Assembly: GCF_024700885.2 (NCBI RefSeq)
Contig: NZ_CP117016.1
Reading direction: 5' to 3' (one strand)
From: Escherichia coli
Lineage (GTDB): Bacteria > Pseudomonadota > Gammaproteobacteria > Enterobacterales > Enterobacteriaceae
DNA length: 64,000 nt
Made by a program: the position numbers. Shown piece after piece: positions 51,301-57,300 of the stretch; positions within the stretch are counted from its first letter, which is position 1, and each line of letters opens with the position of its first letter.

Positions 51301-54300
51301 GTATTGAATATACTAATGGTAGAAACTATGAGCCGGATTTTGTGGTTGAAATGAACAATGGGTACTGTCTTATTGAACCGAAAAAAGCCAATGAAATCGA
51401 TACTCCTGAAGTTCAGGCCAAAACACGGGCAGCCCTGCGCTGGTGTGAATTTGCCAATCAGAATGCAGCAAAGAATGGCGGAAAAGTATGGAGATATGCG
51501 CTTATCCCACATAATGAAATTGAATTAAGTCGCACAGTTTCAGGGTTAATGGCTGATTTTATGATGACAAATAGTTTATCAGCATAGTAGCAGCCCACCG
51601 GAGTTGTAATTAAAAACCATTCCGAGACATTGCGTTGCTGTTTCGGGATGGTTTAGCATAAACAATGAGTAAAAAATGAATACAGAAAGACCGCTCCCTC
51701 AAAAGCAGAATCTTTATAAGACCATGTGGTATTTAATATTCAGCGCAGAGAGATTTGTAACTATCGCTGCCGAAAATTCAATGGCCTTCGAACTTGAACA
51801 TGAAGAGTATAAACGAAAACTTGCCGAGAGGAATTATAGTATTGATCCCAAAGTTCATGTCCACTCTCATCCACAAAGGCTGAAAGACCTGCGAACTTTA
51901 TTACTCAAGACAACGGGTTGTATTTTGAGTGTAATAATCTTAATAGTAGGTATTGGCTTTTATACTTGAAGTGGCACACTGAATTTGGCCACCTGAACAG
52001 AGGTGATATGCTCACCTCAGAACAACACAGGTGCTCCAATGAAAAAAAGAAATTTTAGCGCAGAGTTTAAACGCGAATCCGCTCAACTGGTTGTTGACCA
52101 GAAATACACGGTGGCAGATGCCGCCAAAGCTATGGATGTTGGCCTTTCCACAATGACAAGATGGGTCAAACAACTGCGTGATGAGCGTCAGGGCAAAACA
52201 CCAAAAGCCTCTCCGATAACACCAGAACAAATCGAAATACGTAAGCTGAGGAAAAAGCTACAACGCATTGAAATGGAGAATGAAATATTAAAAAAGGCTA
52301 CTGTAGATTCAATCTGTCAATGCAACACCCCTTTCAATTATCTCTTTCGGTGTTTTGAACTTCAGTGTCTTTCTCGGTCTGTTGTTTAGCTGAGCAGCAA
52401 CCAGATCTAGTTCATGTTGAGTATATTGGGCAAGACATGTCTTTTTAGGAAAGTACTGCCGAATTAGCCCATTTGTGTTCTCATTTGTTCCCCGCTGCCA
52501 AGGACTCTGAGGATCGCAGAAGTAAACTTTAACGCCGGTGCTGACAGTAAATTCTAGATGTCTGGCCAGTTCCATTCCTCTGTCCCATGTCAGTGATTTT
52601 CTGAGTTCTGACGGTAAACTCAGGAATTTGTCGGTAAGAGCCTGATTTACTGAGACAGAATCTTTGCCCCTGAGTCTAAGGATGATCGTATAACGTGATT
52701 TTCGGTCTACAAGTGTGGCTATATGAGAGTTTTTTGTACCTGAGACTAAATCGCCCTCCCAATGCCCCAGAGAGCGTCTGTTATCGATATTTCGGGAACG
52801 TTCGTGAATTGGTGTTCCGTTCACTATGTTAATCGTACCTCTTTCGCCTTTGCGGGTATGACGCCTGCCATGGCGAAGGCTATGCGACCGTCGCAGATGC
52901 TGTATATTCAGGTGGTGTAGCGCTTCACGGCTACGAAAGTACAGCGTTTTATAAATTGTCTCAGGTGATATTCGCAGCGTTTTTTGACGTGGTTTTGTTC
53001 GCCTTAACCATCCTGATATTTGCTCTGGAGACCATTTCATCTCCAGCTTTTCCAGAACAAGCTTTCGCAATGGCAAATTTTGATCCAGTAAGCACGGTTT
53101 TGGCCTTTTCGCCATTCTGTTGGCTCGGTTATTAGCATCAACAGCTTTGTAATAGCGTCTGCCCCGATTACGCTGAACTTCACGTGAGATCGTCGAAGGA
53201 CTGCGATTCAGCGCAGTAGCTATCGCACGAATGCTCATTTTGGCTGACAAACCAGCTCGTATCTCCTCGCGCTCAGACAGTGTCAGGTGAGCTACAGCCC
53301 GCTTACGCTCATGGGGTTTTATGCCGCCAGTATCCCTTAACATAGTGAAGATCGTTCCGGGTTTTGAACCCAGGATATTCGCTATTTCACTGAAGCCTGT
53401 TCCGTTCTTCCATAGTTCAAAAACAGAGGCTTTTTCCTCTGCTGTAAATGTTCGTCTCATTCAAAAAACCTCCGCAACCCCATGTTTTCACATAACTGTT
53501 GCGTTGACCAATTGAATCTACAACCGCGCTCTTGATGTCAGACTCCCTGAACAGTTCTCGATAATCGGGAAACTCAGAGCGCATTATCCTGTGGTCACAC
53601 TCTGCCATGTGTTCGGGGTTCATCGCAGCAGCTACAGATACTGGAAAAACCGTCCTGAAAAACCAGACTGCAGACGGGCTGTATTACGCAGTCAGGTACT
53701 TGAGCTACATGGCATCAGCCACGGTTCGGCCGGAGCAAGAAGCATCGCCACAATGGCAACCCGGAGAGGCTACCAGATGGGACGCTGGCTTGCTGGCAGG
53801 CTCATGAAAGAGCTGGGGCTGGTCAGCTGTCAGCAGCCGACTCACCGGTATAAACGTAGTGGTCATGAACATGTTGCTATCCCTAACTACCTTGAAAGGC
53901 AGTTCGCCGTGACCGAGCCAAATCAGGTGTGGTGCGGTGATGTGACCTATATCTGGACGGGTAAGCGCTGGGCGTACCTCGCCGTTGTTCTCGACCTGTT
54001 CGCAAGAAAACCAGTGGGCTGGGCCATGTCGTTCTCGCCGGACAGCAGGCTCACCATGAAAGCGCTGGAAATGGCATGGGAAACCCGTGGTAAGCCCGGC
54101 GGGGTGATGTTCCACAGCGATAGTAATAATGCCGATGTCAGTCTTTACCACCACTTAGTTTGCCGTTTAACCAGATTGGTGTGATTACTGATGCAGTGAA
54201 GACCTGAACCGCCCCGGAAATCCTGGAGACTAAACTCCCTGAGAAAGAGGTAAACAGGATGACTAAAAATACTCGTTTTTCCCCCGAAGTCCGTCAGCGG

Positions 54301-57300
54301 GCGATTCGTATGGTTCTGGAAAGTCAGGATGAATATGACTCACAGTGGGCGGCAATTTGTTCCATTGCCCCAAAGATTGGCTGTACGCCGGAGACTCTGC
54401 GTGTCTGGGTTCGCCAGCATGAGCGGGATACCGGGGGCGGTGATGGTGGGCTCACCAGCGCGGAACGTCAGCGTCTGAAAGAGCTGGAACGTGAAAATCG
54501 TGAACTGCGCCGCAGTAACGATATCCTTCGCCAGGCTTCCGCTTATTTTGCGAAGGCGGAGTTCGACCGCCTCTGGAAAAAATGATGCCACTGCTGGATA
54601 AGCTGCGTGAGCAGTACGGGGTCAGACCGGTATGCAGTGAACTGCATATTGCCCCGTCAACGTATTACCACTGTCAGCAACAGAGACATCATCCTGATAA
54701 ACGCAGTGCACATGCACAGCGCGATGACTGGCTGAAGAGAGAGATACAGCGCGTATACGATGAAAATCATCAGGTGTACGGTGTGCGTAAAGTCTGGCGT
54801 CAGTTGTTACGGGAAGGAATCAGGGTGGCCAGATGTACAGTGGCACGTCTCATGGCGGTTATGGGACTTGCCGGTGTTCTCCGGGGTAAAAAGGTCCGTA
54901 CGACCATCAGCCGGAAAGCCGTTGCCGCAGGCGACCGCGTAAACCGTCAGTTCGTGGCAGAACGACCTGACCAGCTGTGGGTGGCTGATTTTACTTACGT
55001 CAGCACATGGCAGGGCTTCGTCTATGTGGCGTTTATCATTGATGTGTTTGCCGGATACATCGTGGGGTGGCGGGTCTCATCGTCTATGGAAACGACATTC
55101 GTGCTGGATGCGCTGGAGCAGGCGTTGTGGGCCCGTCGTCCGTCTGGCACCATCCATCACAGCGATAAAGGCTCTCAGTATGTGTCACTGGCCTATACGG
55201 AGCGACTAAAAGAAGCCGGATTACTGGCATCAACAGGGAGTACAGGCGACTCGTATGACAACGCGATGGCTGAGAGCATCAATGGTCTTTACAAAGCGGA
55301 GGTAATACACCGTAAGAGCTGGAAAAACCGTGCAGAAGTGGAACTGGCCACACTAACGTGGGTGGACTGGTATAACAATCGACGATTGCTGGGAAGGCTG
55401 GGCCATACTCCTCCGGCAGAAGCAGAAAAAGCTTATTATGCTTCCATCGGAAACGATGATCTGGCAGCCTGAGTTCACAGATAAAACACTCTCCAGGAAA
55501 CCCGGGGCGGTTCAGTTCACAAAAACACATTAATGCAGTAACTATATTTTCCTTTCTGGTGATAACGTCGGGTTATCATTAGCTTCTTCAGCTATTTTAC
55601 TTTTATATCCCTTGTAAACATCATGGAGAATCCATAGTGAATAAAGTTTATTCTCTTAAATATTGCCCCGTCACCGGGGGGCTTATTGCTGTCTCTGAAC
55701 TTGCCCGCAGGGTAATAAAAAAGACATGCCGAAGATTAACGCATATTCTTCTGGCTGGCATTCCAGCAATCTGTCTGTGTTACTCTCAGATATCCCAGGC
55801 GGGTATTGTCCGTTCCGATATTGCCTATCAGATTTATCGTGATTTCGCCGAAAACAAAGGGCTTTTTGTACCTGGTGCCAATGATATTCCGGTATATGAT
55901 AAGGACGGAAAACTTGTGGGAAGACTGGGTAAAGCCCCAATGGCCGATTTCAGCAGTGTGAGCTCAAATGGCGTTGCTACGCTTGTATCGCCTCAGTATA
56001 TCGTCAGCGTAAAGCATAACGGAGGATATCGGAGTGTGAGCTTTGGTAATGGGAAAAATACATATTCCCTTGTTGACCGTAATAACCACCCTTCTATTGA
56101 CTTCCATGCTCCACGTCTGAATAAACTGGTTACAGAAGTTATTCCCTCAGCGGTAACATCAGAAGGAACCAAAGCCAATGCTTATAAATACACTGAACGT
56201 TACACCGCTTTTTATCGGGTGGGTAGTGGTACGCAGTACACTAAGGACAAGGACGGAAATTTAGTTAAGGTTGCCGGTGGATATGCTTTTAAAACAGGAG
56301 GAACCACAGGAGTTCCTCTGATATCTGATGCAACAATAGTCTCTAATCCCGGGCAAACTTATAATCCTGTAAACGGCCCTTTACCTGACTATGGAGCCCC
56401 TGGGGATAGTGGTTCTCCTTTGTTTGCTTATGATAAACAACAAAAAAAATGGGTTATTGTTGCTGTATTAAGAGCATATGCAGGTATTAATGGTGCTACG
56501 AACTGGTGGAATGTCATACCAACAGATTATCTGAACCAGGTTATGCAGGACGATTTCGATGCCCCCGTAGACTTTGTTTCCGGACTGGGCCCCCTGAACT
56601 GGACATACGACAAAACATCAGGCACAGGTACCCTGAGCCAGGGCAGTAAAAACTGGACCATGCACGGGCAGAAAGACAATGACCTCAATGCCGGTAAAAA
56701 TCTGGTATTCAGCGGGCAGAATGGTGCAATTATCCTGAAAGACAGTGTGACTCAGGGTGCCGGTTATCTCGAATTTAAAGACAGTTACACCGTATCTGCT
56801 GAATCCGGAAAAACATGGACGGGTGCCGGCATTATTACTGACAAGGGGACGAATGTAACCTGGAAGGTCAACGGCGTTGCCGGTGACAACTTGCATAAGC
56901 TGGGGGAAGGAACCCTGACCATAAACGGAACAGGTGTAAACCCGGGAGGACTGAAAACGGGAGACGGTATCGTTGTACTTAACCAGCAGGCAGACACTGC
57001 AGGTAATATCCAGGCCTTCAGTTCAGTGAACCTCGCCAGCGGACGTCCGACCGTGGTGCTCGGGGATGCCCGTCAGGTCAATCCGGATAACATTTCATGG
57101 GGATACCGGGGAGGTAAGCTTGACCTTAATGGTAATGCCGTTACCTTCACCCGACTGCAGGCTGCTGATTACGGGGCGGTGATTACAAATAATGCACAGC
57201 AAAAATCCCAGCTTTTACTGGATCTTAAGGCTCAGGATACAAATGTCAGTGAACCGACGATTGGAAATATATCCCCCTTTGGTGGTACCGGCACTCCAGG

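Follow-up and report, generated by a model that had tools for sequence, protein, structure and literature searches.

A four-layer nest of insertion sequences beside pic in an Escherichia coli island

The window analyzed here is a 64,000-nt stretch of Escherichia coli DNA (assembly GCF_024700885.2, contig NZ_CP117016.1) in which a nest of insertion sequences (ISs) lies at the boundary between a defense-type gene cluster and pic. We read positions 51500 to 56200 directly and listed the open reading frames (ORFs); all coordinates are positions in the window. The region is a four-layer mobile-element nest without a function of its own, made up of IS911, IS30, the left end of an ISEc21-like element, and an element of the IS629/IS1203 type (hereafter, IS629-type). 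A sequence-only reading had described three of these layers; its observation is real and partly confirmed, although incomplete, because the fourth element was missed. We argue below that the present arrangement probably arose by three successive insertions into or within IS911, followed by a deletion between repeats.

Anatomy of the nest

The features of the nest and its pic-proximal flank are as follows.

51967-52301, plus strand: IS911 nt 1-335 (left inverted repeat and 5' part of orfA)
52300-52301, no strand: AC, left copy of the 2-bp IS30 target duplication (right copy, 53523-53524)
52302-53522, minus strand: IS30, 1221 bp, apparently intact (26-bp terminal inverted repeats and transposase ORF)
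52309-53460, minus strand: IS30 transposase ORF, 383 aa (NF033563 match)
53523-54121, plus strand: IS911 nt 334-932 (99.5% identity to intact IS911)
54122-54204, plus strand: left end of the ISEc21-like element, nt 1-83 of 1374 (contiguous with the complete element in EAEC 042 and NCTC9038)
54205-55514, plus strand: IS629/IS1203-type element, 1310 bp, apparently intact (inverted repeats, orfA/orfB, ALIL pseudoknot)
54259-54585, plus strand: IS629-type orfA, 108 aa (IS3-family OrfA profile)
54540-54656, plus strand: ALIL frameshift pseudoknot of the IS629-type element (RF01497)
54582-55472, plus strand: IS629-type orfB, 296 aa (IS3-family OrfB profile)
55458-55514, plus strand: last 57 bp of the IS629-type element, the putative recombination zone (solo remnant in 042, AST81, and HH35)
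55515-55636, plus strand: upstream DNA of pic, 122 bp (same as in 042 and AST81)

The family labels IS911, IS30, and IS629-type, assigned earlier from the sequence alone, are borne out by the protein profiles. The left inverted repeat of IS911 (TGAAGTGGCACACTG...), located by a pattern search, begins at 51967, where IS911 had been said to start. Our reference for this element was a RefSeq copy annotated as an "IS3-like element IS911 family transposase" (plasmid p10_253-2, locus L016; 1251 bp), to which nt 1-335 and nt 334-932 exhibit 99.4% and 99.5% identity, respectively. IS911 orfA (IS3-type) starts at 52040, and the 5' part extends to 4 bp beyond an A AAA AAG stretch in this gene, which we take to be the IS911 slippery heptamer for programmed frameshifting. 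The element breaks after ...AAAAAAGGCTAC at 52301 and resumes with ACCGCGCTC... past IS30. The incomplete orfA fragment matches the HTH_Tnp_1/IS3-family OrfA profile, while the orfB fragment matches rve and NF033516 (181 bits), with rve cut at profile position 73 of 102. The homology stops with nt 932 (54121), precisely where the DDE motif has its second D (translation, GGVMFHSD). The window therefore holds nt 1-932 of about 1250, and the earlier estimate of about 1018 bp of remaining IS911 corresponds to 932 + 2 + 83. The right inverted repeat (...TTGTTGACCACTTCA) was sought by pattern in the window and was not found, because IS911 nt 933-1250 have been deleted; it is present at the expected distance in enteroaggregative E. 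coli (EAEC) 042 and in strain AST81.

The IS30 copy had been placed within IS911 orfA at a length of 1221 bp, and its position is exact (52302-53522). Its terminal inverted repeats have 26-nt arms (88% complementary), and its intact 383-aa transposase matches the IS30 family profile NF033563 (276 bits; cut-off, 80) and carries HTH_38 and rve domains. The nucleotide identity to K-12 IS30A is 99.75%. In the uninterrupted IS911 (L016), AC stands once, at nt 334-335 (GGCTACCGCGC; site sequence, GGCTACCGCG), while the window has both nt 1-335 and nt 334-932; the AC/AC flanks are thus a true IS30 duplication, as had been proposed.

The element at 54205-55514 has the length (1310 bp) and the inverted repeats (TGAACCGCCCCGG...) that define the IS629/IS1203 group. 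Its terminal inverted repeats (TGAACCGCCCC.../...GGGGCGGTTCA) have 29-nt arms (86% complementary), orfA and orfB overlap at 54582-54585 (NF033516, 317 bits), and the Rfam scan placed an ALIL pseudoknot (RF01497) between its ends at 118 bits (cut-off, 50). RefSeq annotates an intact programmed-frameshift transposase, and the element is 98.7-99.0% identical to copies that RefSeq annotates as IS1203. The flanks, previously reported as unlike, are ACC on the left and GTT on the right, without a 3-bp duplication. The duplication is gone from the window because of a later deletion, since the same insertion in AST81 is flanked by ACC/ACC. IS629 and IS1203 of enterohemorrhagic E. coli O157:H7 and O111 share with this element the 1310-bp length, the orfA/orfB organization, the -1 frameshift, the ALIL pseudoknot, and the 3-bp duplication on insertion (as AST81 shows). 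The window copy differs from them in lacking the duplication and in being a mosaic, with a patch of roughly 100 bp of a plasmid-borne isoform.

This patch (54624-54725) was visible as a cluster of about 10 substitutions in 102 bp relative to the orthologous copy of AST81; a 151-bp segment around it had ≥99% identity in 653 records, the top matches being mostly large plasmids. The orthologous copy in strain BEC1-S17-ESBL-09 (hereafter, BEC1) contains a CFT073-type patch at 54609-55238. The orthologous IS629-type elements are thus undergoing patch conversion by other isoforms.

The ISEc21-like fragment and the target sites in IS911

The IS629-type element had been proposed to replace, or truncate, the 3' end of IS911. 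It abuts not IS911 but the 83-bp fragment at 54122-54204, which continues into a complete 1374-bp element of the IS110 family in NCTC9038 and EAEC 042. Past the 1374 bp, IS911 resumes in both genomes exactly at nt 933 without a duplication. In these relatives the ISEc21-like element encodes a 358-aa DEDD transposase (PF01548 and PF02371; NF033542, 195 bits), the coding part of which is absent from the window.

Two published properties of ISEc21 bear on this fragment: its 358-aa transposase uses a guide seekRNA from the upstream non-coding region, and its target is the region of the second-D codon of IS3-family transposases, entered without a duplication (Siddiquee et al. 2024, PMC11187229). 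ISEc21 of LT903847.1 (1374 bp) begins and ends with the same bases as the 1374-bp element of 042 and NCTC9038 (AGTAATAATGCC...GAAGGGCGTC). The two elements thus share their length, termini, and 358-aa DEDD transposase, while ISEc21 is only 92.6% identical to the whole 042 element (89% over the 83 bp of the window), so that the element considered here is a relative of ISEc21 and not ISEc21 itself. The insertion site is TTCCACAGCGAT/element/CAGGGC in IS911, compared with TTCCATAGCGAC/ISEc21/CAGGGA in LT903847.1. With IS911 nt 932 and 933 contiguous around the insertion and no duplication, the target fits the published one; the host IS here is IS911, and nt 1-83 alone are left in the window. The 83-bp fragment is probably part of the upstream non-coding (seekRNA/bridge-RNA) region. 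An Rfam scan of the complete ISEc21-like element gave no bridge or seek RNA match, which is uninformative, since Rfam has no such family.

Junctions were counted among 5426 complete E. coli genomes, and the IS911/ISEc21-like junction was present in 391 of them. The ISEc21-like left end itself was found in 519 genomes (663 places) and fell into two sequence classes, one at or above 95% identity and one at about 89% (i.e., ISEc21 proper). Most of 30 sampled left ends were located under pseudogene calls for IS3-family transposases (IS911, ISEc52, and ISEc31). This distribution is consistent with obligate targeting of IS3-family DDE codons.

The IS30 site in IS911 is shared far more widely. The IS911/IS30 junction occurs in about 1800 genomes (up to about a third), with both orientations mixed. 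IS30 is known for 2-bp target duplications and a preference for hot spots, and the interruption of K-12 IS911 by IS30A is noted in the legend of Fig. 3 of the same article (PMC9333248). In K-12 MG1655 IS911A (CP4-6 prophage; insN/insI1), the 1221-bp IS30A follows the same nt 335 at the same AC, and that IS911 copy is likewise incomplete, but IS30 lies in the opposite orientation. The two IS911 isoforms are only 90-93% identical, and the K-12 copy stops at nt 762 (a group II intron remnant), while the window copy stops at nt 932 (the ISEc21-like element). IS30 is present at this AC in three IS911 isoforms, namely, those of the window, of K-12 (IS911A), and of NCTC9038; mutual identity is 84-93% for the isoforms and about 99.8% for the IS30 copies in them. 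The insertion point is 4 bp beyond the A AAA AAG stretch. Given the evidence from orientation and isoforms, together with the general statement on IS30 targeting (PMC9333248), the AC at IS911 nt 335 is an IS30 hot spot that is not specific to this island.

A single origin of the IS911::IS30 nest, with subsequent spread as a unit (by a trans-mobilized IS911 derivative or by island transfer), would make nt 335 no hot spot at all. The nest does occur at many loci, chromosomal and plasmid, and it is clearly inherited within the island family, where the left junction is common to 61 genomes. This explanation is nevertheless improbable: the K-12 IS30A at the same AC faces the other way, and the bases specific to each inverted repeat have changed places to match, isoforms of only 84-93% identity carry about 99.8%-identical IS30 copies at the same dinucleotide, and hot-spot targeting by IS30 is established (PMC9333248). 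Inversion of IS30 via its inverted repeats was also considered as the source of the K-12 orientation and was rejected, as the repeat-specific bases 13-14 are swapped too. Elsewhere, NCTC9038 and ETEC1749 (the latter near a tRNA-Leu gene) have the IS911::IS30 nest with IS1203 inside the IS30.

A third kind of invader was observed in relatives. A group II intron is located at IS911 nt 762 (window-equivalent, 53951) in O104:H4 (L005, 5352-7614), in FORC_069 (L014, 12045-14316), and as a remnant beside ykfC in K-12 (L006, from 4191); in AST81, a group II intron lies inside the IS629-type element near window position 54995. These introns encode ltrA, and none is present in the window. Homing of the E.c.I4 group II intron into IS911 and IS629 has been reported (Leclercq and Cordaux 2012, PMC3522654). 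The intron sites in the IS911 and IS629 copies of the relatives match this pattern, with the difference that the window is intron-free and that the name E.c.I4 is assigned to the relatives' introns from their sites and not from their sequence. In O104:H4, the far side of the intron is occupied by the 3' 524 bp of a divergent IS629, which suggests that two intron copies recombined and deleted the DNA between IS911 nt 762 and IS629.

IS911 was thus entered by IS30 at the AC (both orientations, three isoforms), by an E.c.I4-type intron at nt 762, and by the ISEc21-like element at nt 932/933. It is quite possible, if short of probable, that IS911 serves as a recurrent landing pad, or safe harbor, for three unrelated sequence-specific invaders, which inactivate it by systematic targeting and not by accident. 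Taken singly, these targeting relationships are on record in papers or annotation. What seems not to have been described as such is that IS911 nt 335 is an IS30 hot spot and that three invaders converge on one small IS.

Order of events and the 1.9-kb deletion beside pic

Comparison of the 4.3 kb from 51600 to 55900 with related genomes provided the clues to the history of the nest. The same arrangement is present in one piece in E. coli MLI114 (stool, Mali; 100% identity) and in BEC1 (Japan; 99.1%). EAEC 042, the prototype pic strain, shares the island context, the IS911::IS30 nest, and the beginning of the ISEc21-like element (100% identity over 51600-54205), as well as the pic-proximal 179 bp save one base (442 of 443 positions over 55458-55900). 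It differs in having no IS629 at the locus and in keeping the whole ISEc21-like element, IS911 nt 933-1249, a 274-bp flank, and a 57-bp solo right end of the IS629 type that abuts the pic upstream region. The intervening DNA of 042 that is missing from the window amounts to 1882 bp, i.e., ISEc21-like nt 84-1374, IS911 nt 933-1249 (with the right inverted repeat), and the 274-bp flank. The 57-bp remnant has an A where the window has a C at 55489.

AST81 links these two arrangements. It has the 042 arrangement plus an IS629-type element at nt 83 of the ISEc21-like element with a clean ACC/ACC duplication (GTGAAGACC/IS629/ACCTTCCCG, compared with the uninterrupted GTGAAGACCTTCCCG in NCTC9038), and a further IS629 right end, of 57 bp, lies at its pic junction. 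The window combines the left junction of AST81 with the right junction of the remnant. The ISEc21-like/IS629 junction was found in only 3 genomes (MLI114, BEC1, and AST81) and is young; the junction between the IS629 right end and the pic upstream DNA was found in 43 and is old. The junction between IS911 and the 97-aa ORF on its left was present in 61 genomes by coverage count, including EAEC 042, 55989, and O104:H4. These counts fit the order of events proposed below.

On these grounds we consider it likely that the locus passed through five steps. IS911 first lay beside the 97-aa ORF, downstream of the defense-type cluster, in the tRNA-Phe island with pic, as the shared junctions show. IS30 then entered IS911 after nt 335 with duplication of AC; because the island's own IS911::IS30 copy is common to EAEC 042 and O104:H4, this insertion took place long before the IS629 event. 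The ISEc21-like element, RNA-guided and without a duplication, followed between IS911 nt 932 and 933, a stage represented by EAEC 042. At nt 83 of that element, in its left end, an element of the IS629/IS1203 type was next inserted and duplicated the 3 bp ACC, as AST81 shows. Finally, the right end of this element may have recombined with the pre-existing 57-bp solo remnant beside pic, by a RecA-dependent exchange or by replication slippage. This step would have removed 1942 bp (3 + 1882 + 57), i.e., one ACC, the 042-type intervening DNA, and one copy of the 57-bp repeat, and would have left the arrangement of the window, an intact IS629-type element with unlike flanks. Repeat recombination is the simplest account because the end points of the deletion match a pre-existing repeat to the base. 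Since the window has C and not the A of the remnant at 55489, the exchange would have occurred within the last 25 bp, or the mismatch would have been repaired. The general idea of the sequence-only reading (i.e., successive insertions plus an IS-mediated deletion at the boundary of the defense cluster and pic) stands; the part that fails is the assumed mode of entry, as the IS629-type element was inserted cleanly and the DNA distal to it was lost later, up to the 57-bp remnant.

Several points weigh against this history. An intermediate consisting of the 042 arrangement plus an intron-free IS629 was not observed among these relatives, the IS629 of AST81 bearing a group II intron. The homology available for the last step is short (57 bp with one mismatch), and a simple crossover would have 25 bp at its disposal, close to the minimum that RecA-dependent exchange needs. 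In the three related strains, the IS629 copies show patchwise differences, indicating gene conversion with other copies, which could blur the comparison. The flanks of IS911 are ACT and AGT even in 042, which would imply an unexplained earlier rearrangement of its ends. The names are provisional, both for the IS629-type element (IS629 or IS1203) and for the ISEc21-like one.

The strongest alternative, although an unlikely one, is that two full-length IS629-type copies recombined, the first in the left end of the ISEc21-like element and the second directly upstream of pic. Long homology would ease such an exchange, and suitable copies exist: full-length IS629-type elements lie directly upstream of pic in JE86-ST05, B-1109, and O111:H21 15A, CFT073 has one about 1 kb upstream of pic (with a different flank), in HH35 the remnant and a full copy are 12 bp apart, and the BEC1 copy is a mosaic with an internal CFT073-type patch. 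The relatives closest by flank identity (042 at 100%, AST81, and FORC_069), however, have nothing but the 57-bp remnant at pic. Moreover, the IS629 of the window matches the inserted copy of AST81 through its whole right half, and none of the 27 differences that characterize the pic-adjacent type (O104:H4 and JE86) appears in it.

Direct insertion of IS629 into IS911 orfB, with a transposase-mediated adjacent deletion of the IS911 3' end, would produce unlike flanks such as ACC and GTT, and IS629-type elements do meet many different left-hand sequences by pic in other strains. We regard this explanation as very improbable, given that IS911 homology ends at 54121, 83 bp short of IS629, that these 83 bp are the left end of the ISEc21-like element, and that AST81 has the same left junction in a simple insertion with an ACC duplication. 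The right junction is also base for base that of the IS629 remnant in 43 genomes, and a chance end at this position is very unlikely. An assembly artifact (i.e., repeat collapse between IS629 copies simulating a deletion) has a very low probability, for although IS-rich regions are often misassembled and the end points lie inside repeats, the arrangement recurs in two independently sequenced complete genomes (MLI114 from Mali and BEC1 from Japan) whose IS629 copies differ at 39 positions.

Repeat recombination at the 57-bp remnant thus remains the preferred account of the deletion. The same remnant was observed in another context in HH35 (L009, 6392-8400), where the left neighbor of a CFT073-type IS629 is an IS30 cut short near window-equivalent 52918, and 12 bp separate the right end of this IS629 from the 57-bp remnant. 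HH35 represents another, independent IS629-associated deletion in the island, with the pic-side junction fixed and the left junction variable.

The earliest part of the history is less accessible. No clean 3-bp target duplication of IS911 was found; the flanks are ACT and AGT in 042 and AST81, while the window lacks the right end. The 274-bp flank that separates the right end of IS911 from the 57-bp remnant (042, L013 13907-14180; AST81, L004 10797-11070) contains 72 bp that are annotated as the C-terminal part of a type I restriction endonuclease. The two flanks of IS911 seemingly derive from unrelated genes, which hints at an older IS911-associated rearrangement. On the left, the hypothetical 97-aa ORF (51676-51969) lies downstream of the helicase gene and takes its TGA stop from the first three bases of IS911. 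It had no match in Pfam or NCBIfam. An empty site (i.e., the 97-aa ORF without IS911) was not seen among the 60 matches listed, partial matches being left uninspected; all 60 listed genomes with this flank carry IS911.

Island context and meaning of the scar

The island that carries the nest is integrated beside a tRNA-Phe gene and has a tyrosine integrase (window positions of about 1 to 41000; MLI114, 949681-990503). Its multiresistance region contains ISEcp1-blaCTX-M-15, blaTEM-1, tet(A), two mer operons, and a class 1 integron (dfrA5-qacEdelta1-sul1), with Tn3-family, IS1, IS21, and IS3 elements interspersed. This region is located upstream of the defense-type cluster (SNF2, AAA ATPase, S8 peptidase, methyltransferase, and helicase) and of pic, the start codon of which is the GTG at 55637.

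The nest is an ordinary IS scar that is already known, in the sense that all its components belong to known families and the exact arrangement is annotated in RefSeq genomes. IS911 and the ISEc21-like element are dead at this locus, while IS30 and the IS629-type element look intact and may be active. This non-coding debris, which marks where the defense-type cluster gives way to the pic toxin gene in an island of the EAEC type, carries little biological weight. As the pic-proximal 179 bp are unchanged, the local sequence gives no reason to expect a change in the expression of pic, with the possible exception of read-through from the intact IS629-type element, which now points at pic. In practice, the ISEc21-like/IS629 junction can serve as a fine-scale lineage marker in view of its rarity (3 of the 5426 complete genomes), and the series from 042 through AST81 to MLI114 and BEC1 forms an ordered history of the pic island. 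The locus is also an example of the deletions that short solo IS ends can template and of the repeated disabling of IS911 by site-specific elements (i.e., IS30, ISEc21-like elements, and a group II intron).

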